DNA from: Gammaproteobacteria bacterium
GTDB taxonomy: Bacteria; Pseudomonadota; Gammaproteobacteria; Ga0077554; Ga007554
Length of the DNA: 64,000 nucleotides
NCBI GenBank assembly: GCA_016191235.1
Contig: JACPOZ010000030.1
Coordinates: forward strand, 3,924 to 67,923
Direction of reading: 5' to 3'
In this document: positions 35,442 to 61,497 of the stretch, one piece after another
Position numbering within the stretch: position 1 is the first letter of the stretch
Layout: every line of letters begins with the position of its first letter
The notes under the pieces: model-generated
Told to the model about the DNA's origin: nothing
Databases searched by the model: none
The model's input: the letters and a program-made list of their open reading frames with translations, nothing else
Translations under genes and position numbers: made by a program

Positions 35442-36671
35442 ATGGCAGTCATCGAAGGATTTCGGGTGCAGAACTATCGCGCACTGCGCGATGTGACGCT
35501 GGGCAAGCTCTCCAACCAGCAAGCTGGGAAACCATTGACGCCTTTCACCGTGGTGATTGGCAAGAACGGCGTAGGCAAGAGCACCTTGTTCGATGCATTC
35601 GGATTCGTGGCGGACTGTTTGTCCGCCGATGTAGAAAGCGCCTGCGACATGAAGCAACGCGGTGGCTTCGATCGCCTTCGCTCGATGGGCGTGAATGAGC
35701 CCATCCGGTTTGAAATCTATTACCGCGAAGGGCCCAATGAACGGCCGATCACCTACGAGTTGGCGATTGCGCTAGATTCCTCGGGGCGGCCCTTTGTCGA
35801 ATCCGAGGTGCTCAAGCAGCGTCGTAAGGGCGAGAAGCGTGGTCGGCCTTATGCGTTCCTGCGCCTGGACCACGGCAAGGGAACGGTCTGGGCAGGTGAA
35901 GAAGCCCTAGAAGCCGAAGGTGGAGAGGATCGTGCCCAGACGCCAGTAGAACTGACCGATACCCGGCAACTCGGCATCGCCACCTTGGGTACGCTCAAGG
36001 AACATCCGCGCATCAAGCTGTTTCGAGACTTCCTCAAAGGCTGGTATCTGTCCTACTTCTACCCGGATGCGGCGCGTAGTCTGCCGAGCGCCGGCCCACA
36101 GCGGCATTTGAACATCCACGGCGACAACATTGGCAACGTGGTGCAGTTCATGGAGCGTGAGCACAAAGCGCGATTCAAGGCCATCCTCGAACGCATTGCG
36201 GCGAAGATTCCGGGGATTGCCAGTATCGACACGCAGGTGACTGAGGACAAGCGCGTGTTACTGCGTTTCAACGACGGCGCTTTTGGTGACCCATTCTTCG
36301 CCCAGCAGATGTCAGATGGCACGCTAAAAGTTTTTGCTTACCTGCTGTTGTTGGAAGACCCGGACCCACCACCGTTCATTTGCATCGAAGAGCCAGAGAA
36401 CGGCCTTTATCACAAGCTGTTGGAGGCGTTGGCCCAGGAGTTCCGTTTACATGCCACCGGCAAAAAGAATGCCCCGCAGATTTTCGTGACCACGCACCAG
36501 CCGTACTTTGTTGATGCGCTGGCGCCCGAGGAAGTGTGGATACTGGAGAAAGGAACGGATGGCTATTCCACTGTGCGTCGCGTCTCTGAGCTTGAAGACG
36601 TGAAAAACCTCGTGGCTGAAGGTTTGCCTTTGGGTGGTCTTTGGTACAGCGATTATCTCGATGAGAGATGA
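35442..36671 (+). CDS. ABC-type AAA ATPase (AAA_21/AAA_15-like, OLD/PARIS AriA-like) without a nuclease domain
   Basis: Walker A VVIGKNGVGKST, Q/signature-like QMSDGTLKVF, Walker B/D-loop FICIEEPENGLY and H-loop VTTHQP. GAGGAG RBS upstream. 4-nt overlap with the next gene. Confidence 0.8.
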   Translation: MAVIEGFRVQNYRALRDVTLGKLSNQQAGKPLTPFTVVIGKNGVGKSTLFDAFGFVADCLSADVESACDMKQRGGFDRLRSMGVNEPIRFEIYYREGPNERPITYELAIALDSSGRPFVESEVLKQRRKGEKRGRPYAFLRLDHGKGTVWAGEEALEAEGGEDRAQTPVELTDTRQLGIATLGTLKEHPRIKLFRDFLKGWYLSYFYPDAARSLPSAGPQRHLNIHGDNIGNVVQFMEREHKARFKAILERIAAKIPGIASIDTQVTEDKRVLLRFNDGAFGDPFFAQQMSDGTLKVFAYLLLLEDPDPPPFICIEEPENGLYHKLLEALAQEFRLHATGKKNAPQIFVTTHQPYFVDALAPEEVWILEKGTDGYSTVRRVSELEDVKNLVAEGLPLGGLWYSDYLDER

Positions 36672-37327
36672 GTATGCACATTGAGATATTGGTGGAGGAC
36701 AGTTCGGGGGAGAAGTTGCTGCAAGTATTGCTGCCTCAGTTTCTGGGGCTACAAGGCGAGCCACATACCTGGCGTTTACATGCCTACAAGGGCATCGGCC
36801 GAATTCCACCTGGCTTGGTGACGAAGGCCGATCCCTCGAAGCGGATTTTGCTTGACCAGCTGCCAAAGCTATTACGTGGTTATGGCAATACGCCCGGAAT
36901 AGATGCCGTTGTGGTCGTGCTCGATACTGACAAACGCGACTGCGCTGCATTTTTGGCCGAGCTGAAAGCGGCCGCCGATGTCTGCAATCCGGTGCCTAAC
37001 ACTCTGTTCAGACTCGCTATCGAGGAAATGGAAGCCTGGTATTTCGGCGACCAAGATGCTTTGTTGGCCGCCTATCCACGAGCCAAGCGGGATGTGCTCG
37101 GAAAGTATGTTCAGGACAGCGCATGTGATACATGGGAACTCCTCGCCGACGCAGTGCATTCGGGCGGGTCGGCAGCGATCAAGAAAGCTGGCTGGCCATT
37201 GCCGGGACAGGTGAAGCATGAATGGGCCGAAAAGATTGGTCCGTTGATGGACCCGAACCGGAATATCTCTCCGAGTTTTGGAAAGCTGAGGGATGGATTG
37301 CGCTGGCTCGTCGCAGAGGCGACTTAA
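36668..37327 (+). CDS. DUF4276-like protein with Toprim-like signature (candidate nuclease partner of the upstream ATPase)
   Basis: 219 aa. N-terminal HIEILVEDSSGE (conserved Glu) and VVVVLDTDKRD (DxD) resemble a Toprim catalytic core. The DUF4276 family assignment is from memory. Confidence 0.6.
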   Translation: MSMHIEILVEDSSGEKLLQVLLPQFLGLQGEPHTWRLHAYKGIGRIPPGLVTKADPSKRILLDQLPKLLRGYGNTPGIDAVVVVLDTDKRDCAAFLAELKAAADVCNPVPNTLFRLAIEEMEAWYFGDQDALLAAYPRAKRDVLGKYVQDSACDTWELLADAVHSGGSAAIKKAGWPLPGQVKHEWAEKIGPLMDPNRNISPSFGKLRDGLRWLVAEAT

Positions 37328-37391
37328 TGCGGGCAATCGGAATCCTTTAATGCTTTAATGAGAGAAAAAAGCGAAGAAAGGACTCCACCCC

Positions 37392-37423
37392 TTAACCCTC
37401 CCTCGACTTAACCCTCCCTCGAC
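37392..37423. repeat. perfect tandem duplication of a 16-bp unit
   Basis: TTAACCCTCCCTCGAC occurs twice in tandem, between the DUF4276 gene and the convergent S8 protease gene. Confidence 0.6.
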
Positions 37424-37537
37424 GCGTGTCCTCATCTCTGCTCTATCGCCCCACCCCAACGCGGCAGGCTGGATGAAGCCTACCGCGCGCCCTTGGCTTC
37501 CGTCGTCAGACGCAGGACGGGTTACTGTGCCGTGACA

Positions 37538-40069
37538 CTACTCGCTTCCACCTGCATAGTAGCGGATGGATTCGGAGTGTAGCCCCTGCGCCGTGAGCAC
37601 CAGCCGTGGCAGGTCGAGGCCGCATCCCGGGCGGAGGATGAGCTTGCCTCGGCCAACGCCGGCCCTCTGCACAGTGAATGTCTGCTGAACGTCCGGCACG
37701 ATGGCGAGGGAGAAAACCCCGTCCCTGTTGGTCATGGCCGATGCCTCCCGAGGTTGGAAAGCGGCTTTTCCAGGCGCGGCCAGCTTGGTGGATAGGCGTG
37801 CTCCGGCGACAGGGCGGCCATTGGCATCGACCACCTCGCCGAAGACGCGGCAGGGCCGTGGCACGTAGGTACGCACCGTGACGCCGCCGATCAGCCGCCG
37901 TTCTCCGTCTTTGGGCGTGGCATACACCGCCACGTTGCAATTCGCCTGGCGGCCGGGACGGGTGCCGACGGGGGCGTTGAAGGTAACCTTGATGTTCCGC
38001 GCGCAATCGGTGAACGGGTCCAGCGCGAAAGCGGCATCGCTGACCGTACAGCGCCAGCCGGGGTGGTCGGAAACCGCCTTGATCTCGAATCGCGCGGGCG
38101 TCATAAGCGAATTTTCGACACGGACATTGTATACCGATGGGCTGATCATGATATTGCGTTGCGTGACATTGTTGGTGTAATCCGCGTCGAGTCCATACGC
38201 GATCGAGATCTGGACACATTGATGGTCTGAAGATGCCGGCGTCCACGCCATGTTCTCGGTAACGGTATCGTGGGGATTGATGGTGATCTTTTTTGTGCCG
38301 AGAGGGTGGAATTGATTATTCCCGGCGGCAAAATTGTACACGCCGAAATTCACCAGGATCGTGACGGGGGTGTTGCCGGGATTTTCTATCTTGACGTTGA
38401 TCTGATTGGGGACGCCGGCCTTGGCCGGCGTGTTCGTCGTTATGTCGACCTGATTATTCCACGCCGGATCGTTGCTCTTGAGCGGGCAGGGCTGGCCCGC
38501 GGCGCCGCCACTCTGGCAGTTGGGAAAGCGCACATCGGTGGATTGCGCCATCGCACCTTGCAGCGCCGCGCCGACGTTCAACAAACCCCAGCCCAGCGCC
38601 GTGTCCCAATTGCCCGTCGTGGATGAATATGGAGTATTGCGCGAATTGTCGGCGAACATGATCAGCAACTGTTTCAGGCTGTCGGGCGACATGGCGGGGA
38701 ATTTCTGCAACACCAGGGCCGCGGCGCCCGATGTCATCGCCGCGGCGGGAGATGTTCCGGGAATTCCCATGAGCGTGGTGGTGCTCAGATTCTGTCCCGG
38801 CGCGGAGAGGTCGGGTTTCAGCGCCAGCAGGTTCGGCGACACGAAGCTGAAGTCCTTGCGCGGACCAATGAGATAGTTGCTCCAATGCGTGTCGTCGCTG
38901 CGTGTCACCGTGTTCTTGTCATCCGTGGCATTGACGCTGATGGCGAACGAGGCCGAGGCAGGCGGCTTGGTGATCCTGGCGCCTGGCGAAGACGCCGGGC
39001 ATGACGCCGTACCGTTATTGGCATTGGCGTAGGAGGCCACCACCACCAACCCCAGCGCCGAAAGATAATTGGCCTGCTGCGACAATGCGTCCGTGCCGTC
39101 ATCATCGACGCAGCGCGAGAAAGACAGGTTGACGACGCGAATCTTGAATTTCTGGGCATTGATGCCAACCCAGTCCACCGCCTTGGCGGTAAATGTCGAG
39201 TCGCAATTGTATTGACCGGAAGAAGTGGTCCCGCAACGGTTCACATCAATAAGACCTGCGGCTGGCGCAATCCCGGCACAATTGGCCGCGGGGCCGCCGC
39301 CGGGATTTCTGCACGTCTGGCCGGCAACACCTCGCCCCAGCGCCATCACGGCCATGGTGGTGCCATGATTGCCGACGTTGTCCGTTGGATTTCTTGATCC
39401 GTCTCCCGAATCAGTGCTGTCCCAGGCATCGTATCCGGCAACGAATGCCGAAGATGGGAGTGTATTCAAGGTGCCATCATTGACACCTGTATCGACGATG
39501 GCGATATTGATCCCGCTTCCGTTCAGGCCCATGTCCTGCGCCGACTGGTTCGGGTATTGGGCGCTGGCATGCGCTTGAATGGCGCGGGAGGCAACGTCCA
39601 GCTCCAGGGTTTCCGGTATCTGCCATTCGACCATCGCCACCTCGGGCCGCGCGGCAAGTGCCGGCAAGTCGGCAATTGGAACATCGTTGAGGAAGACGAA
39701 ACTGACCAGCTTGCCTACATAGGCTATCTTTCCGTATCTGGAAAAGATTTCCTGCACCTGCGCCGGAGGAATGCAACGGTTTAGTGCGAGAATGATATTC
39801 GTGCGATCTTTGGGGCCAAAGCGCGCCTCGATCTCGTCATCGATGAAGTTGCGGTTCTGGTCGCGAACCCAGGATAGATGCTTGCGCTGCCCGATCAGGG
39901 TGGGATTCGAGTGCGACGTCACAACTTTTTGCCAGGAAAGCGGCGTATATGCTGTTGCGTACAACGGCCCACACGTAAAAATAAACAGGAATGACGAGAA
40001 AGCGATAACGAACTTCCTTGTGAGTTGCTCTGTCTTCCCTGACACGTAAAAACCCAGCTGGATTTTCAT
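37538..40069 (-). CDS. secreted subtilisin-like serine protease (peptidase S8) with N-terminal propeptide and C-terminal accessory domains
   Basis: 843 aa with a signal peptide, catalytic triad motifs IAIVDTGV (Asp), HGTTMA (His) and GTSPAAAMTSGAAAL (Ser), and a C-terminal beta-sandwich region. Confidence 0.85.
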   Translation of the reverse strand: MKIQLGFYVSGKTEQLTRKFVIAFSSFLFIFTCGPLYATAYTPLSWQKVVTSHSNPTLIGQRKHLSWVRDQNRNFIDDEIEARFGPKDRTNIILALNRCIPPAQVQEIFSRYGKIAYVGKLVSFVFLNDVPIADLPALAARPEVAMVEWQIPETLELDVASRAIQAHASAQYPNQSAQDMGLNGSGINIAIVDTGVNDGTLNTLPSSAFVAGYDAWDSTDSGDGSRNPTDNVGNHGTTMAVMALGRGVAGQTCRNPGGGPAANCAGIAPAAGLIDVNRCGTTSSGQYNCDSTFTAKAVDWVGINAQKFKIRVVNLSFSRCVDDDGTDALSQQANYLSALGLVVVASYANANNGTASCPASSPGARITKPPASASFAISVNATDDKNTVTRSDDTHWSNYLIGPRKDFSFVSPNLLALKPDLSAPGQNLSTTTLMGIPGTSPAAAMTSGAAALVLQKFPAMSPDSLKQLLIMFADNSRNTPYSSTTGNWDTALGWGLLNVGAALQGAMAQSTDVRFPNCQSGGAAGQPCPLKSNDPAWNNQVDITTNTPAKAGVPNQINVKIENPGNTPVTILVNFGVYNFAAGNNQFHPLGTKKITINPHDTVTENMAWTPASSDHQCVQISIAYGLDADYTNNVTQRNIMISPSVYNVRVENSLMTPARFEIKAVSDHPGWRCTVSDAAFALDPFTDCARNIKVTFNAPVGTRPGRQANCNVAVYATPKDGERRLIGGVTVRTYVPRPCRVFGEVVDANGRPVAGARLSTKLAAPGKAAFQPREASAMTNRDGVFSLAIVPDVQQTFTVQRAGVGRGKLILRPGCGLDLPRLVLTAQGLHSESIRYYAGGSE

Positions 40070-40328
40070 GGTTCATCTCCCTGTAAGGGCAAAGAATTTG
40101 TTGTGTAGCTGCCACGACAAAATCATTGAACCACATCATGATCCAGGCATCTTTGACGCAGATCAAAAATACTCCGAATTAATATAAGACTTCCGCAAGA
40201 GCATGGCATCCTGGAAACCGGTAATGCATCCGACCTTGATATAGATCAAGGAAATATTCTGGCGAGCGTCTACTATCGTTTATCAGGCGGTAGTGGTGGG
40301 ACGTGTGATGCAGGGTACGGAGGCAGCC

Positions 40329-43300
40329 ATGATTAAGGTCACGGTAAGTTCCCGATTTTTCATCGGGAGTAAAAAGAAAAATATACTGGCGTTGTTGCTT
40401 CTCGCGATCAGCGCCCTGTGTTTTCCGATACTGGTGCCTGCGGCCCCTCCCAACGTCAACATTACCAATCATGCGGCGTGGCAAAATGAGCCGATGGTCG
40501 CGGTCAATCCCCAGGATCACGACAGGCTCGTGGTGGGATATAACGACAATCGCACTGGCAATGTGGCGGTCGGCTGGTCGTGGTCCGACAATGGCGGCGC
40601 CGTCTGGACTCACGGCGGCACCATTGCGCTGGCGGGTTATACGCGAAGCGCCGATCCCGTGGTGGCCTTCGACAGCGCGGGTACTGCCTACCTCGCCGGC
40701 CTGGCCTTCAATCCCGACAACACGCCGGGCAGCCTGGGCAGGGATGGCAGCATTTTCCTGGCCAAATCCAATGACGGCGGCCATACCTTCACCGTCTTCC
40801 AGAACATCGTCGCCGCCGGACAAGGCACGGCAAACCACCTCGACAAACCCTGGCTGTTCGTTAATCCCGCCAATAATCATGTGTATCTGGCCTGGACGCA
40901 GCGTGCCAACGCGTGGGGCGTGGGCGGGGCTGAGTCGATGACGATATGGTTCACGCGCTCTATCGATGGCGGCGTCACTTTCTCCCCGCCGCTTCAGGTC
41001 AGCACCTTCAATCCCCCAACCGGCGCTTCGCGCTCGTTTGGGCCGCAAATCGCAATCGGAGCGAACGATCGCATCTATGTTGCATGGCATACCCTGGAGA
41101 ATGGCAATCCGGGCGATGCAAATTGGGTCGCTCCCAGGCTGTGGATCGCCGAATCCATCGATGGTGGCGTGAGCTTCGGCGCCAACCAGCAGGTTGCCAG
41201 CCAGCTGTTCGGCAAGCCAAATAAATTCATCAGCATGGGCGCGGACCCGGCCAGTGGCAGGATTTACATTGCCTACGCCGACAGGCCCGCTTGGCCGGGC
41301 GATTATGACATCTATGTGGCAAGCGCCGCCGCGGCTGCCGGACCGTGGGCGGTAACGCGCATCAGCGATGACCCGGTGGGCAGCGGCAGGGCACAGTTCT
41401 GGCCAAGCCTGGACGTAGCACCTAACGGTCGGGTGGATGTAATCTGGTATGACAACCGGGACGATGCCGTGACTAACAAATTGAGCGTCTATTACACTGC
41501 CTCGATCGATGGCGGAATGACGTGGGCCGTCAATACCCGCATCACGGATGTCGTGCCAGGTTTCACGCCGACGCAGGATTTCGCGGGCGACTACCACTCC
41601 GTCGCCTCCGTCAACGATAAGGCTTACGCCGTGTGGATGGATAACCGGCTGGGCAATCAGGAAATCTTTGGCACCAACATCTCGCAGGAGGCGGTGGACG
41701 CCATGCTGGTGCTGGATATCTCTGGCAGCATGCTGTCGCCGGGTTGTCCCAATTGCGCGCCCAAGCTCGACGCGCTGAAGGATGCAGTGGAGATCTTCGT
41801 GCAGTTATGGAACAGCCTGGCCGTGGCCGAGCCGCAGCACCGGCTGGGGGTGACCTATTTCAGAACCAACGTGAACGAATTCAATATCGGTGGCGAGGCC
41901 CTGTTGCCAATCGGACCTGGTAACAACAACGCCCAGGCTATCATTGCCGATGTCGACAGCCAGACGACTGTTCCCATGAATCTGACGGCAATGGGAGGCG
42001 GACTGCAATCCGCCATCAACCGTCTCACCGGCATGAGTCCACGCCGCATCATCCTGTTCACCGACGGTATGCAGAACGTCAATCCAATGGCGCTGCCGCA
42101 GGGCGCTGCGCTGAAAATCGACACCGATCCCGCCACTTCTAACACCTCCAATATCAGTCCCACCACACCACCCACCGTGCTGGACCAGCAGTTGGGGCGC
42201 AGGATCAACACCATCGGCGTGGGCGCCACGCCGCAATTCGTGACGCTGCTGCAGAGCATCGCCAATAACACGGGCGGGAGAAGTTACACGACCATGGCGC
42301 CCGATGCTAACCTGCGCCGCTTCTTCGTGGAGCAACTGGTGGATGCCCTGCGCGGCGCCAGCCCGCAATTGATCGACTACCGTGTTCACAATCTGACCGC
42401 CGACCGGGTTTTCGAAGTCTTCAGCGTCGATCGTTCGGCGAAAAAAATCATTTTCAAGCTGAGCTGGAAGCGTGGCGAACCACCACTGGCGATTGAGCAG
42501 ATCGAAAAAGACGGCGTCAACCTCATCGCCCATGCCAGGCTGACCAGCGGCGACTTCTACCGCATCTATGCCTTTGATCTGCCGCTCGCGGTGCAGAATG
42601 CACGGATCGGGCCTGAGGGAGACTGGCGCCTGCAAATCTATGGCATCAAGGGCGCGCGCTACGAAGTTGCGGCGCTCGCTGACGAGAAAAGGCTCGATTA
42701 CGCCTTTGAGATTCACAAGGGGCTGAGCAAGGTGGGAGAGCCGCTCCGATTGACGGCTCGCCTCGCTGTGGACGGCAGGCCGCTGTCCGATGCCAATCTG
42801 GTGGCCGCCCAGGTCTTCAAGCCCGGAACCAGCGTTGGAACGGCCCTTTCGATAACACCTACTCCTGCATGGATCAGCGCTGCGGCGCCAGTCGCGGCCG
42901 GCCATCAATCCGAGCCGGGAACGAGTCCTGCCCAGCAGAAACTGCAAACTTTGCTGCAACAGGAGGGGTTCTGGAAACGTGTTCAACCCGCCGACGGAGC
43001 GCTGGTGCTGGCCAGCCAGGGGAATGGCATTTATACCGCAATCTATGACGATACCAGCATCCCCGGCGCCTATACCGTGGTGTTTCGCGTCAGCGGCACG
43101 GATGAGGATATCGGCGCGTATACCCGCACCGAAACACGTGTGGCGACGGTGCAGTTCGGCAAGGCGAATCTGGATGCCTCAGATATGCGCGTGGTGAGCA
43201 AGGACGTGATGGGTTATGCCACCCTCATCAAGATCCAACTCCGCCCCCGTGACGCACGCGGCAATTATCTTGGGCCTGACTATGGGCAGCGGATCAAAGT

Positions 43301-43889
43301 ATCCACCGCGACGGGAAACATCGAGCCGGGTTTCCGTGATCTGCTGGACGGACGATATGAGTATGCTCTAACTGTGCCCACCGGCTCCGACCCCGAGATT
43401 CGCGTGGCGGTGATGGATGAGCCCCTCTACGCCGGACCGCTCTCGCGAGTGAGCGAGGGCGCTTCCTATCGCTTTGCCCTCAGCGCCCACCTGGGCTGGG
43501 GTGTGCCTTTGGGCAACTTCAACAATCAATACGATGCGGGAATGCTGGGCGAGCTGGATTTCGAGTATCGGCCTTCGCCACGCTATTCGCTCAACGCCGT
43601 GCTTGGCCGCTACCGCTTCGACCCTGATTTCGACATCACGGGTGGTACACTTTACCTGCGGGGCTATCAACCGCTCACGCCACAGATGGAAGGGTATGTC
43701 GAGGCAGGTTTGGGCGCCTATCGCCCCGAGTCCTTGAGCAGGAGGGGCGGGATAAGTCTCGGTGCCGGCGTGAGCCACGCCCTGGCTCCAAGGCTTCGCG
43801 GTGAGCTCGGCGCCGATTATTTCCATCTGTTTGGCGGAGGTGATATTGATTTCATCGGTGTTAAGGCGGGCCTGCGTTGGTTGTTTTGA
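40329..43889 (+). CDS. large exported BNR/Asp-box repeat + von Willebrand factor A + C-terminal outer-membrane beta-barrel protein
   Basis: GGAGG RBS and ATG at 40329 (the ORF track starts earlier at 40293). Signal peptide ILALLLLAISALCFPILVPA. Five SxDxGxTW-type Asp-boxes (SWSDNGGAVW, SNDGGHTF, SIDGGVTF, SIDGGVSF, SIDGGMTW). VWA MIDAS motif LVLDISGSM. The C-terminus has alternating hydrophobic beta-strand periodicity and ends in AGLRWLF (OMP-type terminal Phe). Confidence 0.7.
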   Translation: MIKVTVSSRFFIGSKKKNILALLLLAISALCFPILVPAAPPNVNITNHAAWQNEPMVAVNPQDHDRLVVGYNDNRTGNVAVGWSWSDNGGAVWTHGGTIALAGYTRSADPVVAFDSAGTAYLAGLAFNPDNTPGSLGRDGSIFLAKSNDGGHTFTVFQNIVAAGQGTANHLDKPWLFVNPANNHVYLAWTQRANAWGVGGAESMTIWFTRSIDGGVTFSPPLQVSTFNPPTGASRSFGPQIAIGANDRIYVAWHTLENGNPGDANWVAPRLWIAESIDGGVSFGANQQVASQLFGKPNKFISMGADPASGRIYIAYADRPAWPGDYDIYVASAAAAAGPWAVTRISDDPVGSGRAQFWPSLDVAPNGRVDVIWYDNRDDAVTNKLSVYYTASIDGGMTWAVNTRITDVVPGFTPTQDFAGDYHSVASVNDKAYAVWMDNRLGNQEIFGTNISQEAVDAMLVLDISGSMLSPGCPNCAPKLDALKDAVEIFVQLWNSLAVAEPQHRLGVTYFRTNVNEFNIGGEALLPIGPGNNNAQAIIADVDSQTTVPMNLTAMGGGLQSAINRLTGMSPRRIILFTDGMQNVNPMALPQGAALKIDTDPATSNTSNISPTTPPTVLDQQLGRRINTIGVGATPQFVTLLQSIANNTGGRSYTTMAPDANLRRFFVEQLVDALRGASPQLIDYRVHNLTADRVFEVFSVDRSAKKIIFKLSWKRGEPPLAIEQIEKDGVNLIAHARLTSGDFYRIYAFDLPLAVQNARIGPEGDWRLQIYGIKGARYEVAALADEKRLDYAFEIHKGLSKVGEPLRLTARLAVDGRPLSDANLVAAQVFKPGTSVGTALSITPTPAWISAAAPVAAGHQSEPGTSPAQQKLQTLLQQEGFWKRVQPADGALVLASQGNGIYTAIYDDTSIPGAYTVVFRVSGTDEDIGAYTRTETRVATVQFGKANLDASDMRVVSKDVMGYATLIKIQLRPRDARGNYLGPDYGQRIKVSTATGNIEPGFRDLLDGRYEYALTVPTGSDPEIRVAVMDEPLYAGPLSRVSEGASYRFALSAHLGWGVPLGNFNNQYDAGMLGELDFEYRPSPRYSLNAVLGRYRFDPDFDITGGTLYLRGYQPLTPQMEGYVEAGLGAYRPESLSRRGGISLGAGVSHALAPRLRGELGADYFHLFGGGDIDFIGVKAGLRWLF

Positions 43890-43910
43890 CACAACATCAG
43901 GAGAGCGATT

Positions 43911-44681
43911 ATGACATCCATGCGCTATGTGAAAAGCTGGTTATCCTTGATGACTCTGGTGAGCGTAACGCTCGCCCTTGCGGCGTGCGCAACGACATAC
44001 AAGGCTCAGCCGCTGCCGTTTCGTCTGCCTTCCTCCTATCCCAATGCCACCGTGGTGGCGGGGGCGACGCTGGGCGCCGAGGCCTATGTGGACAAGGATC
44101 AGGCGGGGAACGCCTTTGGTTTCGACGTGCGCGGCGCGGGGCTGTTGCCGGTGCAGGTGGTTTTCGATAACAAGGGTACGCACCCGCTGGTGATCAATCC
44201 CGGTCAAACCTTCTTGGTGGACAACGAAGGCAAGCTCTGGCCGGTGTTGGAAGAACGCTTTGCTTACGAGCGTGTCACCAAGTATGCACAGACCAAAAAG
44301 ATCTTCAGCGAGGGGGCTTACAGCGGCTTTCTCGGCGGTGTGGCGGGTGGCTTGATCGGTGCTGCGGTCGGCGTGGTCAGCGGTGAGGATGTGGCCAGCG
44401 CCGCAGGCAAGGGTGCGGCGGCGGGCGCGGCCGCCGGTGCCGTGCTGGGAGGGGCCAGCGGCGCGGCCAGTGCGGGCGAGGCCCGTGACCGGGTGATGGA
44501 CGATTTCAGGGCCAAGTCGTTGCAGAACAAATCAGTGAAGCCGGGTGACATCGCCTACGGTTTCATGTTCTTTCCCGGCGAGGTCATGTCGGCCAAAGTG
44601 TTGCGCCTTCAGCTCATGGAAAAGGATACCAACACCGTTCACACGCTGGAAATACCGCTGTCCGTCGGCAATGCGAAGTAG
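43911..44681 (+). CDS. lipoprotein with glycine-zipper segment, function unknown
   Basis: Lipobox LALAAC and a Gly/Ala-rich zipper GFLGGVAGGLIGAAVGVVSG...GAAAGAAAGAVLGGASGAASAG. Lies 21 bp downstream of the BNR/VWA gene, so likely co-transcribed. Confidence 0.6.
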   Translation: MTSMRYVKSWLSLMTLVSVTLALAACATTYKAQPLPFRLPSSYPNATVVAGATLGAEAYVDKDQAGNAFGFDVRGAGLLPVQVVFDNKGTHPLVINPGQTFLVDNEGKLWPVLEERFAYERVTKYAQTKKIFSEGAYSGFLGGVAGGLIGAAVGVVSGEDVASAAGKGAAAGAAAGAVLGGASGAASAGEARDRVMDDFRAKSLQNKSVKPGDIAYGFMFFPGEVMSAKVLRLQLMEKDTNTVHTLEIPLSVGNAK

Positions 44682-44932
44682 GGGCGAATTTCAAACTCAC
44701 CTCGTCAAGAAGCGATGGAATGTTTGGAGATTATCACTACACTCGATGTGGATGCCATCGTCAATGCCGCCAACCCAGCAAAAGAAGCAGCAAAAAGCAG
44801 CAAAAGGGTCGCAGCCCTTTAATCTGAACGGCGGTGTGCGCTCTACCCCGAATGCTTCATACATTCGGGGTAGTTTCGCCTAATGAACAGCCTGGTCACA
44901 TGAGGCTAATGATAGAAAAAAGTAAAAAAAGG

Positions 44933-46148
44933 CTCTGACCCGAATGGCACTTACTTAAGCTTCGTAGGGTGTCCATTTTTCCGAATGTTCTCCCTGGCGA
45001 CAGGTCGTGGCTTGGTGAGCAAAGGATAGGGTTTCGGTCGTCGCTTGATGGCGCGAGGTTCAATGCGCCCCAGGCGGTTCCCGACGCGCTGTTGGGCGAT
45101 CAGGGCAAACAGGTCTGCGAGGGTGTCTGCGTTACCGGCGCCCATTCCTCTTTGGTTCCACGCCAACCAGAGCTGAAGGGTGTGCTTGAAACTAAATTCG
45201 CGCGGTAGCCTATCGGTCAACAAAGCGGACTGAGCCATCAGGAGCCGAATCAGGTTATAGGCCAACAGATGCACCCAGATTTCCTTCTCAGCCATCGCTG
45301 GGGTTTTGCAACTCAGCATTTCCATGCCCAGCGTGGTTTTGATGTGGCGCAGATCCAGTTCTATGTGCCATCGGCTTCGATAGAGTATTTTCAGGGCCGC
45401 TTTGGGTGTTTGGTTCGGGTTCAATAGCGTCGTTACCAGGACCTTGCCGCCGGTATACAGCTCCCGTACCGTCAGCGTGTCCGGGGCGTGATCGTAGTCC
45501 GATTGCGCCATCCAGCCGGGCTTGGTCTGCGGCTTGGCGATCGTGATCAGATGATCACGTGATCCCAACCGCCGGCCACGCCGAAAGTCGGTGCGGCGCT
45601 TGCGTGCCCCCAGTTGTTCGAACACCGCATCCACACCGCGTGATTGCAAGTCGGACAGCAGAAAATAGGTCGCGTAATAGGCATCCCCCAGCAGGATGTC
45701 TCCGGCATTCAGAGTGTCGAGCACCGACCGCAGCAAAGATTGTTCATCGCCGCCCTTGCCTTGGTAGCGACCGATCGCCGCGTTGAGTACCGCACCGCTG
45801 CCGAGGCACACGATGCCTACCATGCGGCACAGCGGGAAACCCGCCCCCGGCTTTTGGCTGCGCGATCGACAACGTCTCCGTGGGCGGAAACAGCCTCTCC
45901 AGGTGATCGAGCCATTCGGCGCTGGTGAGAAGGTTGAAGAACGCGTAGGAATCGGTGTTGGCGGCGTGATGCCGAATACGGCGCTGTTGATGTGCGCGAG
46001 CGCTGGGAGTACGATGCATAAAGACTGGCTCCTTGTGATATCGGTGGTAGTTTGGCAACACCAACCTTATCACTTAAGCCAGCCTTTTTGTATATTAAAA
46101 TCAATGTGTTATTCGTTAAGTAAGCGCCATTCGGGTCAGACCCCTTTA
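44933..46148. mobile_element. degenerate IS4-family insertion sequence (internally deleted), about 26-bp terminal inverted repeats
   Basis: Inverted repeats GCTCTGACCCGAATGGCACTTACTTAA (44933-44959) and TTAAGTAAGCGCCATTCGGGTCAGACC (46122-46148). A transposase reading frame is disrupted inside. Confidence 0.7.
44951..46073 (-). pseudogene. IS4-family DDE transposase, internal deletion/frameshift
   Basis: The N-terminal 70 aa (MHRTPSARAHQQRRIRHHAANTDSYAFFNLLTSAEWLDHLERLFPPTETLS) are in one frame. The C-terminal 290 aa (GFPLCRMVGIV...LLGDAYY...YRSRWHIELDLRHIKTTLGMEML) are in another. About 100 codons between them appear to be missing. Confidence 0.7.
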
Positions 46149-46496: not shown

Positions 46497-47468
46497 TTAT
46501 AACCGCCACCCCCAAAACTCAAGAAACCGCGCAAATTCCCACATATCCGAAGCCGTGCGGTTCCACGGTTTCAGGCTGGTGTAAAATACTGTGCCGGTCT
46601 CGCGGCTATCGCCAAGCTCTTTATCCGATCCAATGTGCGGGTCCAGCGCCCACCAACTCATCAGCAGGACTTCAAACGGCTTGATGGCCCCTTTGACGTA
46701 ACCTTTGCGGAAGCCTTGCGTTTCATAAAACGATGTCATGGTGTGGCTATCCAGCGGCAGCTTTTTCAGTACTGCCATTGGCTCGATGGGGGTTGGAATG
46801 ATGTTGTAGGTGTTGTCCTGCGCCCCGATCTTCACATCCATCACGCGGTGCGTGGCGTCCCTCAGGAGCACCACAGGCCGCTGGTCCGCGCCGGAAGATG
46901 CCGGGTAATCGAGCCTTGCGGGCAGTGTTTCACCATAGATAGACTGGGGTTGTGCAAAATCCCATCCCTGGGGATAAGCATCATCTGGTAAATAACGCGT
47001 GGGGATGACGGCGAGATAGCAGCCACAGGTATGGACGGTTGTTACCAGCACTGGCTCTTCTTTTTGATTAAGGGTGATGATGACAAACAACCCGGAATTT
47101 TTTCCGGCGGTCAGGTGAAAATACGGCACACCCTGAAAATGCACACGGTAAATCAGGTTGGTGTAGTTGCCTTTGCTGGTCTGGAACGTCTGCTGCTGGG
47201 CATACATCACCGGCACCGCAGGGTCGACATAGATCTGTTCGCGGCCCTGCGCGTCATAGCGGCCGGAGGGACGGCCGATCTTGTTGTAGGTTTTGTAATG
47301 ATGCTGCGGCACAAAGACCGGGGCATGGCGCGCGAACAGGCCACCGTCGTCTTTCGCCACATAGGCCACTGGCGGTTGCCCGGTGAGGGGGCGGGTGCTT
47401 GCGCAGGAGGCGAGCAGCATGGCCAAGGCCAGTGCGCCGAGAATCCTGACTAATGTGTGCCTTGGCAT
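46497..47468 (-). CDS. lipoprotein of unknown function
   Basis: 323 aa with signal peptide and lipobox LLASCAS. No recognisable catalytic motifs. Confidence 0.55.
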   Translation of the reverse strand: MPRHTLVRILGALALAMLLASCASTRPLTGQPPVAYVAKDDGGLFARHAPVFVPQHHYKTYNKIGRPSGRYDAQGREQIYVDPAVPVMYAQQQTFQTSKGNYTNLIYRVHFQGVPYFHLTAGKNSGLFVIITLNQKEEPVLVTTVHTCGCYLAVIPTRYLPDDAYPQGWDFAQPQSIYGETLPARLDYPASSGADQRPVVLLRDATHRVMDVKIGAQDNTYNIIPTPIEPMAVLKKLPLDSHTMTSFYETQGFRKGYVKGAIKPFEVLLMSWWALDPHIGSDKELGDSRETGTVFYTSLKPWNRTASDMWEFARFLEFWGWRL

Positions 47469-53977: not shown

Positions 53978-54751
53978 ATGAAATCGACGTTTGATCACAG
54001 CGCACCCCCCGGACTCCGCCGGGACTTGCGTGCCTGGTATGCTCATGGCATCGGCCATCTGCTGCTGGAAACCGAACGCGCGCAACTGGATGAGGTCTTG
54101 CCCAACCTGTTCGGTTATCACCTGTTGCAGGTTGGGCGCATCCATCATGAAGATCTGCTGGCGTCCAGCCGCATCTCCCACCGGGTGGTGCTGGATATCG
54201 ATGCGGTGGCGGGGGATGCTCCTGCCAGTGTGTTGCGTGCCCGCGCGGATGATCTGCCTATCGCTTCAGACAGCGTGGATGTAGTGGTCTTGCCGCATAC
54301 CCTCGAATTTGAGTCCGATCCCCACAGCGTGTTACGGGAGACGGAGCGCATCTTGATCCCGGAGGGGCATGTGGTGGTGCTGGGATTTAATCCCTGGAGC
54401 TTTTGGGGAATATGGCGGAAGCTGTTGGCCCGCCAGGGCGCGGCACCCTGGTGCGGACGTTTTCTGGGGTTGATGCGTATCAAGGATTGGCTGGCCTTGC
54501 TGGGGTTCGATGTCATTGTGACGCGCCAATATTTTTTTCGTCCCCCCTTGCAGCGGGAAGGGGTGATGCGCAAGCTGCTGTTCATGGAAAAAGCAGGGGC
54601 GCGGTTGTGGCCCCATTTGGGCGGGGCCTACATGGTGGTGGCCAAGAAACGGGTAACCACCATGACGCCGATCAAACCGCGCTGGCGCCCCCGCCGCAGC
54701 CTGATCGCCGCCCCTGCGAGACCCTGCACGAGGAATATGAGACGTGTCTGA
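53978..54751 (+). CDS. class I SAM-dependent methyltransferase (conserved gloB-rnhA neighbour)
   Basis: 257 aa Methyltransf_11-like protein, divergent from gloB, overlapping the rnhA start. Confidence 0.7.
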
Positions 54752-56364: not shown

Positions 56365-56402
56365 AGAAAATAAAGAATTAATTACGGGTGGGAGGTACGG
56401 CG

Positions 56403-58247
56403 ATGAAGCGGCATAGTGTGTCGGGGTCATTTGGGAAGGGTTGCCGTTTGTTATTTTGCGGCGTGGGTATTGCCCTTGTTACCGTGGGGCACGCCGCAGA
56501 ACCGGCCGATAGCCCTCCCGCAACCGCCGCTCCTGCGCCGGAGCAAACAGTCCCGTCCCCCACGCCCGTCCCCGGTGATGCCTTAAGCCCGGACCGCCTG
56601 GTGCTGGCGGCAACTTTCGGCCATGACAAGGTAGTGCGCTACATGCTCGAACGCGGCATGGACGTAAACTCCAAGGATATGTTTGGGACTACCGCGTTGA
56701 TTGCCGCCGCCACTGCCGGTCAGGGTGAAATCGTTGACCTACTGCTCAAGGCGGGCGCCGATGTGAAAGCAGGCACCAACGTGGGGCATACTGCTCTGAT
56801 GGGTGCCATTACAAAAGGCGATGTCTCGATCACCAAACGCCTGCTCACTGCGGGTGCGGAGGTCAACGCCAAGAACAACCGTGGGGAAACCGCCTTGTTT
56901 CCTGCCGTCCAATACGGCAACCTCAGGTTGGTGGAAATGCTGCTGGCGGCGGGGGCAGACCCGAATGTAGCGAACACGCTTGCGCTTTCCGCAAGCGACA
57001 GCGGATATACACCGCTGATGTATGCCGCACGGCATGGCCTGATGTCTGCCGACGGCCCTTGGCACGACATCACCAATGCCCTGCTCGCCAAGGGGGCCGA
57101 CCCCAATCTCAGGGATACCCATGGCGGCACGGCGTTAAGCCTTGCGGAGCGCAATCAATATGCGGACATTGCGCACACCTTGAGACAGGCCGGCGCGCGC
57201 AAAGAATCGGTTTATACCAGCCTCAGCCTGGACGATGCCTTGATCAAGGCATCGAGAAACGGCGATGTTGCCAAAGTAGGCCAATTATTTGAAGAAGGCG
57301 CACGGGCAAACGTCAAAAACAGGGTCGGCGTGACACCCCTGCTGGAGGCGGCACTGGCTGGCCACACGGCGGTTGTAAAGATCCTGGTCGAGCGTGGCGC
57401 CAAAGTGAATGCCGTACCGGATGGCTTGCGTGACTGGGCCATCTCTGCCTCAAGTGTTCCACTGGCTGATCAGGACATAGTGCAAGCCGCTTCGCGCGGC
57501 GATACGGCGCTGATCATCGCCGTGCGCAATGCCCGCACCGAGACCGTGCGTTATCTGCTCGATCATGATGCGGATTTTAATCGCCCCAACCACCGGAATG
57601 AGACCGCCCTGTTTGTCGCCGCTGAATTGGGGCGCAGCGACATCATGCGCCTGATGTTAAGCAAAGGCGCGGACCCCAATGCGGTGGAGCAGGAAAACCG
57701 CACCAGTTCGTTCACCGTCGCAATGAGCACCATCGGCAGGAACACGGTGTTGATCAAGGCCGCGCAAAGCGGCCATGCCGATGTCGCACGGATTCTGCTG
57801 GATGCGGGAGCACGAGTCGATGCGCGCGGTTTTATGGGGAAAACGGCCCTGTTCTGGGCAGTGGAGCGTGGCCATGCAGCGGCTGCTCAAACGCTGCTTG
57901 AACAAAAGGCCGATCCGAATATCAAAGATGTTTCGGGACTCACTCCTCTTATGGTTGCAGCGGCGAACGGCTCCTCCAGAGTTGTGGAGCTTCTCCTGAA
58001 AAACAAGGCCGACATCAACGCCACGGAGGGCGCCGATCCTGGTGCCGGTGGCAGCGTGTTTGGCGTATCCGGCACCACGGCCTTGATATTCGCGGCCCGC
58101 GCCGGTCATGTGGAAGTTGTGCAGATGCTGTTGAAGGCCGGGGCTGATGTCAACGCCATGAACAGCAACGGCAGCAACGCCATCAAGGAGGCGGAAACGA
58201 ACGGGTATACGAAGATAGTGGAGATGTTGAAAGCCGCAGGTGCATAA
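56403..58247 (+). CDS. exported ankyrin-repeat protein (about 15 ANK repeats)
   Basis: Signal peptide MKRHSVSGSFGKGCRLLFCGVGIALVTVGHAA. Reiterated ANK consensus (G-TALM-AA--GH--VV--LL-AGADVNA) throughout. Confidence 0.8.
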   Translation: MKRHSVSGSFGKGCRLLFCGVGIALVTVGHAAEPADSPPATAAPAPEQTVPSPTPVPGDALSPDRLVLAATFGHDKVVRYMLERGMDVNSKDMFGTTALIAAATAGQGEIVDLLLKAGADVKAGTNVGHTALMGAITKGDVSITKRLLTAGAEVNAKNNRGETALFPAVQYGNLRLVEMLLAAGADPNVANTLALSASDSGYTPLMYAARHGLMSADGPWHDITNALLAKGADPNLRDTHGGTALSLAERNQYADIAHTLRQAGARKESVYTSLSLDDALIKASRNGDVAKVGQLFEEGARANVKNRVGVTPLLEAALAGHTAVVKILVERGAKVNAVPDGLRDWAISASSVPLADQDIVQAASRGDTALIIAVRNARTETVRYLLDHDADFNRPNHRNETALFVAAELGRSDIMRLMLSKGADPNAVEQENRTSSFTVAMSTIGRNTVLIKAAQSGHADVARILLDAGARVDARGFMGKTALFWAVERGHAAAAQTLLEQKADPNIKDVSGLTPLMVAAANGSSRVVELLLKNKADINATEGADPGAGGSVFGVSGTTALIFAARAGHVEVVQMLLKAGADVNAMNSNGSNAIKEAETNGYTKIVEMLKAAGA

Positions 58248-60386: not shown

Positions 60387-60794
60387 ATGAATGCCATTAT
60401 CCCGATCCCGCCAAGAAAGGCTGATATTCACGGTAAACAGGGCCGCGAGAGCCTGGCCAGGATGGTGGTGAAACTGTTTGAGCTTTGGGGACTCAACACC
60501 GGTGATCAAGCGGCCTTGCTCGGGCTTTCCAGCGACTCACGTTCAACCGTGGCACGTTATAAAAAGGGCAGCCCGCTCGCTGATAATGCCGACCTCATCG
60601 GGCGCGCCGGGCATCTGCTGGGTATACACAAATCCCTGCGCATTCTGTTTCCGCATAATCGCGATCTGGCTTACCGCTGGGTCGCCACCCCTAACCGCAG
60701 GTTTGATGGCCAAACCCCGCTTTCCATCATGACCAAGGGCTACGAAGGCCTGCTCGCCGTGCGTAGGTATCTTGATTTCGAGCGTGGCCGCTAG
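60387..60794 (+). CDS. Xre/MbcA/ParS-family antitoxin (DUF2384) of a RES-Xre toxin-antitoxin pair
   Basis: 135 aa. C-terminal DUF2384-like AYRWVATPNRRFDGQTPLSIMTKGYEGLLAVRRYLDFE. Confidence 0.75.
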   Translation: MNAIIPIPPRKADIHGKQGRESLARMVVKLFELWGLNTGDQAALLGLSSDSRSTVARYKKGSPLADNADLIGRAGHLLGIHKSLRILFPHNRDLAYRWVATPNRRFDGQTPLSIMTKGYEGLLAVRRYLDFERGR

Positions 60795-61497
60795 CGCCAT
60801 GATATATGGCGAGCTGATTTCCGCAGCCGTGGATTTTCACCGGCATCTCATCAGAAATATCAAAGGCATCCGCGAATCCCAGGCGATTTTTGATGATCTC
60901 GCCGAGAGCGAGGCAGAGATGCGCGTGGCGATTGCCGTCGAATCGGCGGACTTGATCGAAAGCCATGCGCCACTGATTACCCGTCCGTTCGATTATGGCA
61001 CAGTCATCACCTATCCCTTCCTGAATCACAACTGGCAGCAGACACGCTTTAGCAACGGCACCCGCTACGGTGTATGGTACGGCTCGCTGGATGTAGAAAC
61101 CACGGTTTACGAGTCGTCCTATCATTGGTATCGCTTTGTCATGGACAGCTATGCGCAGGAAAATACCGTCATCATAGCGGAGCGGCGGGTTTTTAACGTG
61201 CAGTGCGATGCCATCCTGATCGACTTGCGCGGTAAGGAGAAAAATTATCCGCAACTTGTCGCCACACATGATTATGTTTACACGCAGCAACTGGGTGCCT
61301 ATCTCCAGCAGAAAAACCAGAATGGCCTGCTGGTCAAATCCGCCCGTTGTGATGGCGTGAATGGTACGATTTTTACGCCGGAAGTTTTATCCCATCCATC
61401 CGATGTCTGTTATCTTACCTATACAATGAATCCGGTAGCGGCTGAGATCCTGATTGAAAGGCAGCGTGGCTTGCCGTGGTTTACGATTACAATGTAA
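60772..61497 (+). CDS. RES-domain toxin (MbcT/ParT family)
   Basis: R-E-S signature: RFSNGTRYGVWYGS...ETTVYES...S. An alternative ATG at 60799, 4 nt after the antitoxin stop, gives a 233-aa product. Confidence 0.75.
   Translation: MISSVAASAMIYGELISAAVDFHRHLIRNIKGIRESQAIFDDLAESEAEMRVAIAVESADLIESHAPLITRPFDYGTVITYPFLNHNWQQTRFSNGTRYGVWYGSLDVETTVYESSYHWYRFVMDSYAQENTVIIAERRVFNVQCDAILIDLRGKEKNYPQLVATHDYVYTQQLGAYLQQKNQNGLLVKSARCDGVNGTIFTPEVLSHPSDVCYLTYTMNPVAAEILIERQRGLPWFTITM

Follow-up and report, generated by a model that had tools for sequence, protein, structure and literature searches.

A modular envelope protein with a BNR propeller, a VWA domain and a small C-terminal beta-barrel in a gammaproteobacterial contig

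The stretch of DNA analysed here (the window; 64,000 nucleotides, positions 3,924 to 67,923 on the forward strand of contig JACPOZ010000030.1 from the NCBI GenBank assembly GCA_016191235.1 of a Gammaproteobacteria bacterium) contains a gene for a large protein, termed the big protein in the following, which lies next to a divergent gene for an S8 subtilase and is followed by a gene for a glycine-zipper lipoprotein. On the basis of sequence comparisons, the big protein is a rare head/anchor combination in a large family with the order 'head - VWA - stalk - choice of anchor', in which, as shown by alignment of its members, the C-terminal barrel is interchangeable with a transmembrane helix and the heads are swappable on a common stalk. 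Our favoured overall reading, which is held with moderate confidence, is that of a Sec-exported, outer-membrane-anchored modular envelope protein, the passenger of which would face the periplasm and the gene of which would be under FNR-type control. An earlier note on this DNA, made from the sequence alone, had described the same three genes as a surface module, and all three open reading frames (ORFs) are found where it had placed them.

Domain architecture of the big protein and its modular family

The ORF of the big protein extends over 40293-43889 on the + strand, with the best start at the ATG at 40329, 6 nucleotides (nt) past a GGAGG motif. This start gives 1186 amino acids (aa), hence the 1187-aa protein of the earlier note stands as an ORF but not in its length; an identical database copy from a metagenome is annotated from the ATG at 40308 and has 1193 aa. 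The order of domains is a signal peptide, a BNR propeller, a VWA domain, an immunoglobulin (Ig)-like stalk and an 8-stranded barrel ending in Phe, with the following coordinates.

40329 to 40442, + strand: Sec signal peptide (aa 1-38), with a KKK n-region, an h-region and a cleavage site between VPA and A
40452 to 41684, + strand: six-bladed BNR/Asp-box beta-propeller head (aa 42-452)
41694 to 42347, + strand: VWA domain (aa 456-673), with D463-I-S465-G-S467, a CPNC pair at aa 473-476 and D579
42366 to 43439, + strand: Ig-like beta-sandwich stalk (aa 680-1037), with a low-confidence linker at aa 835-890
43473 to 43889, + strand: predicted C-terminal 8-stranded outer-membrane barrel of the OmpA/NspA/OmpX type (aa 1049-1186), ending in GLRWLF-stop

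The combination of Asp-boxes, VWA domain and C-terminal barrel, which had been proposed before, is borne out by Pfam, by a full-length AlphaFold2 (AF2) model built with a 31-row alignment and by Foldseek, and we hold the architecture and the anchor as described here with high confidence. NCBIfam returned nothing above cut-off for any of the three window proteins, and sequence searches of the PDB with the big protein and with the lipoprotein gave no match. The signal peptide is without a lipobox on inspection of the sequence, and its aa 15-30 form a helix in the AF2 model.

The head is modelled with a predicted local distance difference test score (pLDDT) of ~90 and matches the sialidase, GH93 and GH145 propellers in Foldseek (E 2e-10 to 1e-8, template-modelling score [TM-score] 0.53-0.64, identity 11-16%), while the Pfam BNR_2 match of the big protein stays under threshold. 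It harbors four canonical Asp-boxes of the form S-x-D-x-G-x-x-[WFY] (aa 147, 211, 276 and 392), compared with a mean count of 0.04 in shuffled sequences, so that four of the five Asp-boxes counted earlier are confirmed and the fifth (SDNGGAVW, aa 85) is only a degenerate one. The six-bladed propeller with Asp-boxes that is expected of GH33 is present in the head, but the motif kept in the first blade throughout the family is QNEPMVA(I/V)NP, and R-[IV]-P is not found there (no FRIP), and the structural matches extend to GH93 and GH145, which are not sialidase families. As modelled, the head is a BNR propeller that is sialidase-like in fold only, and membership in the sialidases is not established.

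The VWA domain is recognised by Pfam VWA_2 with 32.8 bits against a cut-off of 27, while the AF2 confidence in this region is low (45-70). D463-x-S465-x-S467 and D579 are invariant in the alignment of all full-length relatives, whereas the Thr of the metal-ion-dependent adhesion site (MIDAS) is ambiguous, as T553 adjoins a deletion relative to GNTPL of the relatives with a transmembrane tail. The earlier claim of a VWA domain with an intact MIDAS motif (DISGSM) is thus upheld for the domain, DxSxS and D579, but not for the position of the Thr. In the stalk, beta-sandwich domains are modelled at aa 680-830 and 900-1037, and the match to Invasin_D3, though weak in the window protein, reaches significance for 10-11 of the 39 relatives in each anchor class.

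For the C-terminal barrel, the full-length AF2 model has eight successive strands at aa 1049-1185 (pLDDT 81-91), and a model of the barrel alone, built together with ten homologous barrels, also has eight strands (pLDDT 91.5, predicted TM-score [pTM] 0.82), in agreement with the beta-barrel ending in Phe that the earlier note had suspected. The top Foldseek matches of the barrel in the PDB are exclusively integral outer-membrane barrels, namely the transmembrane domain of OmpA (OmpA-TM; TM-score 0.74-0.78) and NspA (TM-score 0.77, root-mean-square deviation 2.9 A over 155 columns), followed by OmpW, Ail, OmpX and OprF-N. Strands 1, 2, 5, 6, 7 and 8 clearly show the alternation of a hydrophobic with a polar, Gly-rich face, and strands 3-4 show it weakly; the seven connections between strands all measure 2-7 residues, and strand 1 follows PLYAGPLS, the conserved end of the stalk, at a distance of ~8 residues. 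The terminal Phe is found without exception in the 10 barrels compared and may be read as the beta-signal for insertion by BAM (the beta-barrel assembly machinery). With eight strands, loops of 2-7 residues and a linker of ~8 residues, the modelled barrel would be unable to act as an autotransporter pore, and we infer a minimal anchor of the OmpA/OmpX class instead.

Full-length relatives of the big protein that were found by a word-indexed search are few: besides the identical copy, there are two barrel-type proteins (59-62% identity) and four proteins of ~1070 aa (35-40%), which in the alignment have a hydrophobic helix and a basic tail in place of the barrel. When 1.84 billion cluster representatives were searched exhaustively with aa 453-1186 in HMMER, by contrast, the VWA-stalk-anchor module was matched in 1288 representatives at E<=1e-3, in 825 at E<=1e-10 and in 333 at E<=1e-30. 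Among the best 150 of these representatives, 49 have a barrel that is recognisable as such and ends in an aromatic residue, a few others seem to have diverged barrels, 43 end in a Trp-rich transmembrane helix with an R/K cluster, and the remainder are anchorless or truncated; a BNR head of the window type occurs in one of the 150 only.

The heads vary considerably on this common module. The barrel-type members that were annotated with Pfam (39) include 34 with VWA, 22 with OMP_b-brl (E<=0.001, best 1.8e-13) and 10 with Invasin_D3, and their heads belong to Peptidase_S8 (7), M36 (5), M4 (2), Sortilin (3) and GH113 (1), while those of 39 members with a transmembrane tail are mostly unannotated (S8 in one, LVIVD in one). 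For instance, P0005 combines a Sortilin-like propeller head with 46% identity to the window protein over aa 453-1186, and P0023 an S8 protease head with 53% identity over aa 456-896. The middle region can differ as well, as P0008, P0011, P0013, P0014, P0017, P0018 and one locus in a Bacteroidia metagenome-assembled genome (MAG) keep the head and the barrel around a different middle region. Four relatives with a transmembrane tail (P0004, P0006, P0007 and P0010) match the NCBIfam model NF041940, choice-of-anchor X (E 5e-13 to 6e-11, 42-48.5 bits against 25), and the counterpart of this domain in the window protein is a degenerate segment at ~aa 894-920. Part of the family is hence already covered by an NCBIfam domain model; to our knowledge, however, no member of the VWA-stalk-anchor family has been characterised, and an OmpA-like barrel has not previously been recognised or described as a 'choice of anchor'.

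The divergent subtilase, the lipoprotein and the promoters between the genes

The genes on either side of the big gene and the sites in the 260-bp spacer towards the subtilase gene are as follows.

37538 to 40069, - strand: secreted or periplasmic S8 subtilase of 843 aa
40125 to 40130, - strand: predicted -10 element TTCAAT of the S8 promoter
40153 to 40166, - strand: S8-proximal FNR-type box, TTGACGCAGATCAA, which is TTGATCTGCGTCAA when read on the S8 strand
40234 to 40251, no strand: palindrome CCTTGATATAGATCAAGG, proximal to the big gene, holding the perfect FNR box TTGATATAGATCAA (40236-40249)
40271 to 40276, + strand: predicted -10 element TACTAT of the big-gene promoter, as read from the sequence
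43911 to 44681, + strand: glycine-zipper lipoprotein of 256 aa, with lipobox LAAC and Cys26

The subtilase is identified by Pfam PF00082 (E=1.2e-30), by a catalytic triad D193/H235/S440 in the order typical of S8 and by ~100 full-length homologues of 40-93% identity. It consists of a signal peptide, a conserved N-terminal region of ~150 aa, the catalytic domain (aa 184-495), a Cys-rich CARDB-like beta region and a CarboxypepD_reg-like domain (aa 742-806), and contains 16 Cys. The earlier description as a divergent, secreted subtilase with a propeptide holds for the subtilase and its orientation but not for the propeptide, as the N-terminal 180 aa, conserved within the family, gave no Pfam match at E<=0.1, propeptide families included. 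In the alignment of the family, the catalytic Asp is replaced by Gly in P0206 and P0210 (AILGTGV, AFIGTGI) and HGT by HES, and members of this type may be pseudo-proteases. A sub-clade (L050, L051, L053, L057 and L067) is located downstream of a conserved group of genes that, by our reading of their sequences, encode a ~1200-aa cyclase-AAA-TPR-like protein and radical-SAM-like proteins, which is possibly a peptide-maturation context and unrelated to the window locus.

The near-palindrome that had been noticed in the divergent region is real, with perfect 7-bp arms CCTTGAT and ATCAAGG around ATAG, but its nature as an FNR box had gone unrecognised. The consensus of this box is TTGAT-N4-ATCAA, and a functional site with 9/10 matching positions and the same TTGAC half as in the S8-proximal box has been described (PMC7349173). 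The box of the big gene matches at 10/10 positions and that of the S8 gene at 9/10, their centres are 83 bp apart, and the perfect box stands at a mirror-image distance from the big gene compared with the S8 box. Over the 64-kb window, four matches with <=1 mismatch are found where 1.7 are expected, and two of the four are within the spacer. If the S8 box is centred at -41.5, the predicted -10 element falls at -12 to -7 and transcription would start at ~40118, while the centre of the other box at 40242.5 predicts a start at ~40284 and a 45-nt leader to the ATG at 40329.

The S8 box is identical 5' of the orthologue with 88% identity (L025), a 9/10 box is found 5' of the orthologue with 93% identity (L113), and the boxes in the S8 orthologues are ~85-97 nt before the ATG. 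The motif GATGTG(G/A)TTCAATG that follows the box is conserved in the three upstream regions of the S8 orthologues, whereas sequence further upstream is not, and the S8 promoter thus appears to be ancestral to S8, with the big gene having a promoter of its own. We are fairly confident that the spacer contains two back-to-back class-II promoters of the FNR type, and the S8 gene and the big gene are therefore predicted to be co-induced at low oxygen; the regulator may alternatively be another protein of the FNR/ANR/DNR type. A search of 37000-46000 with Rfam found no RNA family.

The lipoprotein gene starts exactly 21 nt past the stop codon of the big gene, as noted earlier, with a GGAGA ribosome-binding site of its own, and a terminator scan found no terminator-like site in the gap, hence the two genes are probably co-transcribed at this locus. 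The signal sequence ends in TLALAAC, with Cys26 followed by ATTYK, and has a lipobox of the form [LVI][ASTVI][GAS]C; the protein has eight overlapping GxxxGxxxG motifs, and neither of its halves gave a match in Pfam. It belongs to a family with 722+ matches, the best 120 of which have 57-78% identity and ~245 aa, and homologues are encoded with metH on one side and an RND pump downstream, or else with recJ and moeA/prfB/lysS as the two neighbours. The lipoprotein is likely to be functionally unrelated to the big protein and to come from a separate, widespread stand-alone family. The 142-aa gene 3' of the lipoprotein homologue in L026-L029 is without a counterpart in the window. At 44846-44872, downstream of the lipoprotein gene, there is a strong hairpin with a 12-bp stem (CTACCCCGAATG-N7-CATTCGGGGTAG) followed by TTTCGCC, which was missed by the simple terminator scan and may be the terminator of the operon or the end of a mobile element.

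Association of the genes and the surrounding window

Outside the window, the trio of S8, big-protein and lipoprotein genes was found solely on an identical 7.7-kb metagenome contig (L003), and the proposal of a three-gene surface module is largely refuted by this lack of co-occurrence beyond an identical contig. The gene for the homologue with 59% identity (L001), the closest full-length one, lies after a MacB-type ATP-binding cassette (ABC) system and before a Ser/Thr kinase gene, and neither an S8 gene nor a lipoprotein gene is present within 10 kb of it. Close orthologues of the subtilase are likewise found in other settings, namely among cob genes in a Gammaproteobacteria MAG (88% identity) and next to Hsp15 and a MacB system (93%, L113). 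The MacB-type ABC and membrane fusion protein genes by L001 and L113 were examined as a shared export system and discarded, as the generic ATPase alone matches (47%) and the permeases and the membrane fusion protein do not. Among 44 loci of the S8 family collected from metagenomes, the big-protein family is adjacent in two, the window (with its identical copy) and L004, where an S8 gene (43% identity over the full length) follows that of a relative with a transmembrane tail and the gene order differs from the window. Clustering of the neighbours of the 44 loci revealed no conserved partner, the exceptions being the sub-clade beside radical-SAM and cyclase-AAA-TPR genes and tandem S8 paralogues.

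A further S8 gene is found next to a BNR gene in L006 (6494-11368, from a Gammaproteobacteria MAG), where a 1129-aa S8 protein with a fervidolysin-type prodomain is encoded 25 bp before a BNR-only homologue of 486 aa. This stand-alone propeller is 58% identical to the window head, while its S8 neighbour belongs to a different subfamily, and the locus shows the S8-BNR association in a compact form of two genes. Taken together with the window and L004, subtilases are encoded at three of the seven independent loci with a close BNR head, compared with 0/16 loci with a distant BNR (searched with a mixed S8 HMM); by a rough estimate, any S8 gene is expected in <=1-2% of 20-kb stretches. In addition, S8 heads are fused to the stalk in 7/39 of the barrel-type relatives. 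As a Rosetta-stone link to the S8 protein of the window, such fused heads (of the P0023 type) were rejected, since they belong to an unrelated subfamily and the correspondence is at the superfamily level only.

The suggestion that the subtilase could process the big protein is thus supported as far as a link is concerned, by the close-head loci, the fused heads and the FNR-type boxes at both genes, but not as a fixed pairing, as 42/44 S8 loci are without the big protein. We tentatively regard the BNR-head subfamily and the subtilases as being in a facultative functional association rather than in a fixed module. A dedicated three-gene module, in which the subtilase would mature or shed the big protein and the lipoprotein would be its outer-membrane partner, could account for the tight spacing with its terminator-free 21-nt gap, the matching FNR-type boxes at the divergent promoters, the renewed adjacency in L004, albeit in another gene order, and the S8-BNR pair in L006. 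It is nevertheless improbable, since the trio is confined to the identical contig, the closest full-length homologue has neither partner nearby, the lipoprotein homologues are located in housekeeping contexts (metH/RND, recJ-moeA/prfB), the 88% and 93% S8 orthologues in cob-gene and Hsp15/MacB settings, and the S8 enzymes that adjoin BNR genes come from three unrelated subfamilies. Conversely, the genes may have been juxtaposed by accident in a rearranged island and share a regulator alone, or nothing; the content of the interval (below), the three different neighbourhoods of three close S8 orthologues and the S8 box, which would be ancestral to S8 and not to the S8-big pair, are in line with this, which is nonetheless rather unlikely, as adjacency of S8 at close-head but not at distant-head loci is far above the rough estimate and the big gene itself has a perfect FNR box, which is as far from its start codon as the S8 box is from that of the S8 gene.

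The interval in question lies between hisF and hrpB. Directly after hisF, at 35442-37327 (+), an AAA_21 ATPase (409 aa) and a DUF4276 protein (219 aa) are encoded with a 4-nt overlap, and the pair matches the PADLOC candidate defence system HEC-01A/HEC-01B (E=6.5e-193 and 1.2e-93). On the other side of the three genes, a 35-aa ORF at 44715-44822 (+; MECLEIITTLDVDAIVNAANPAKEAAKSSKRVAAL) starts like the N-terminus of a macro-domain, with a VDAIVNAAN motif that we take to be of the YmdB type, and stops thereafter; it resembles a gene remnant, and Pfam gave no match for the out-of-frame stretch, which was searched over 44698-44820 only. A 290-aa DDE_Tnp_1 transposase ORF at 44951-45823 (-) is probably 5'-truncated, as its match begins at profile position 41, and the ORF at 46497-47468 has no match in Pfam. 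Because of the macro-domain remnant, the truncated transposase, this unannotated ORF and the defence pair, the hisF-hrpB interval is suggestive of a rearranged island. Elsewhere in the window, a 619-aa protein encoded at 56388-58247 (+) consists almost entirely of ankyrin repeats (11 Pfam Ank stretches, Ank_2 E=2.3e-89), which is unusual for a free-living gammaproteobacterium, and a RES-domain protein (60772-61497, +; E=2.4e-19) is possibly the toxin of a RES-Xre pair.

Orientation of the passenger and meaning for the family

The host is a diderm, as shown by the Mla operon in the window and by the origin of the 88% S8 orthologue from a Gammaproteobacteria MAG, and the barrel can thus be compared with known outer-membrane proteins (OMPs). 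Like OmpA-TM, NspA, OmpX and Ail (PF13505), it has eight antiparallel strands, a length of ~140 aa, an aromatic residue at the C-terminus and an interior that is polar and rich in Gly. In contrast to OmpA, in which the barrel comes first, and to the stand-alone NspA, OmpX and Ail, it makes up the last 12% of a protein of 1186 aa, and its loops are trimmed to 2-7 residues, unlike those of the OmpA/NspA/OmpX class. Bipartite OMPs such as BamA, LptD and PgaA, and also Tpr of T. pallidum, resemble the big protein in having a domain N-terminal to the barrel, which in their case is periplasmic; their barrels, however, have 10-26 strands with functions of their own, and none has a BNR or VWA passenger.

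Type Va autotransporters, including those with a subtilase passenger (NalP, fusolisin, EprS), share with the big protein a passenger at the N-terminus, a barrel with a final Phe at the C-terminus and the use of Sec and BAM, and its relatives include protease passengers, but the big protein has 8 instead of 12 strands, no pore helix or linker and a passenger other than a beta-helix. In Foldseek, the NalP translocator is a distant match (rank 28, TM-score 0.27-0.42), and there is no Pfam autotransporter match to the big protein. Hop/Hom of H. pylori, for which a distinct type-V-like class has been proposed (PMC5727368), likewise have a large globular domain at the N-terminus and a small barrel of ~8 strands at the C-terminus. 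The big protein has no sequence relationship to them, and its strands are all contiguous. The Hop barrels are interrupted, with the passenger being inserted after strand 1. The order of head, VWA-MIDAS, beta-sandwich and C-terminal anchor further resembles CLCA, which has a metalloprotease head, a VWA domain, a beta-rich part and a transmembrane anchor or is secreted (the CLCA2 architecture is described in PMC10669480). In contrast to CLCA, the head is a BNR propeller without HExxH and the anchor is a beta-barrel; the relatives with a transmembrane tail match the hCaCC/CLCA model weakly (E 1e-4 to 0.09, far under cut-off), and the matching segment is that of choice-of-anchor X. With the NF041940 family, finally, the big protein has in common that homologues carry a barrel, a transmembrane tail or no anchor.

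In the overall reading that we favour, the big protein would be exported by Sec and its barrel inserted by BAM, with the barrel being an anchor alone, without a lumen or linker able to thread the passenger. In the canonical OMP topology, the passenger of ~1000 aa would be suspended in the periplasm from the outer membrane's inner face, and the propeller and the MIDAS site may bind a glycan or protein ligand there. The class-II FNR-type promoters would switch on the big gene and the subtilase jointly at low oxygen, the subtilase would be a facultative partner that co-acts on the same substrate or processes the big protein, and the lipoprotein would be a transcriptional passenger only. OmpA, NspA and OmpX have closed lumens and both termini in the periplasm, and a periplasmic orientation is preferred because of these termini, the lack of a spare membrane-crossing segment and the fact that domains N-terminal to OMP barrels stay periplasmic. 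Among the relatives with a transmembrane tail, one gene adjoins a DUF4124 gene, which, given what we take to be the distribution of DUF4124, is suggestive of a proteobacterial host; together with the signal peptide and the C-terminal transmembrane helix, this would make the passenger periplasmic in that relative as well. On the model, a periplasmic passenger is an evenly balanced call, favoured over display at the surface, and the earlier idea of a self-anchored adhesin, which implies surface exposure, is not supported, given the 8 strands, the short loops and linker and the canonical topology towards the periplasm.

A number of observations weigh against the favoured reading. For its domain assignments, these are the missing match of the window protein to NF041940, which is explained by an 8-residue deletion in that segment, and the marginal match to Pfam OMP_b-brl (PF13505; E=0.017, 15.7 bits compared with a gathering threshold of 28.7), owing to which the barrel was examined by structure. 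For the proposed regulation and partnership, they are that no CRP/FNR-family regulator was found among the ten window ORFs of 197-333 aa that were scanned, that a further perfect FNR-type box (TTGATGCGTATCAA, 54470-54483), probably a chance match, lies within the Methyltransf_11 gene at 53978-54751 and shows that such matches occur, and that the S8 family, including the 88% and 93% orthologues, lacks an adjacent big-protein family gene in 42/44 loci. For the orientation, the proteases that relatives carry on this stalk and barrel (M4, M36 and S8) are classic extracellular enzymes, and the 'choice-of-anchor' families of NCBIfam are usually surface proteins. The close relatives with a BNR head, moreover, contain PKD, CARDB and lectin domains and dockerin-like tails, as read from their sequences, which are parts typical of extracellular proteins. 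All three of these points argue for surface display.

According to this alternative, the passenger crosses the outer membrane and the protein is an adhesin or enzyme platform on a small barrel, which would call for a type-V-like or BAM-assisted route of a non-canonical kind, since a barrel of 8 strands has no room for a linker. Besides the protease heads, the GH113 head found on the same stalk and barrel, the interchange of the anchor with a transmembrane tail on a stalk domain from a 'choice-of-anchor' family and the Hop adhesins of H. pylori, which are surface proteins on small barrels of ~8 strands (PMC5727368), are in favour of it. Against it stand the eight contiguous strands at the C-terminus with their linker of ~8 and loops of 2-7 residues, and the best structural matches to OmpA, NspA and OmpX. 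An interrupted barrel of the Hop type is absent here, and the passenger is composed of folded globular domains including a CxxC pair, hence we consider surface display doubtful. A still bolder proposal, that the minimal 8-stranded C-terminal barrel is the signature of an undescribed but widespread display route, type-V-like or assisted by BAM, for large folded passengers without a pore of their own (BNR propellers as well as M4, M36 and S8 proteases, on a VWA stalk), with this locus as an anaerobically induced example that has a co-regulated free subtilase, seems unlikely to us.

What is new and most useful here is how large and modular the family is, the puzzle posed by its topology, and the pair of FNR-type promoters, which make low oxygen the predicted condition for the big protein and the subtilase. 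A VWA-stalk module with either an OmpA-like barrel or a transmembrane helix at its end is common to hundreds of sequence clusters, the heads of which are hydrolases or propellers. If their passengers face outward, they would represent a new mode of display for enzymes and binding domains in diderms and a topological problem beyond current type V models, while passengers that face inward would make them a class of outer-membrane-tethered periplasmic enzymes and binding proteins, possibly packaged into vesicles.

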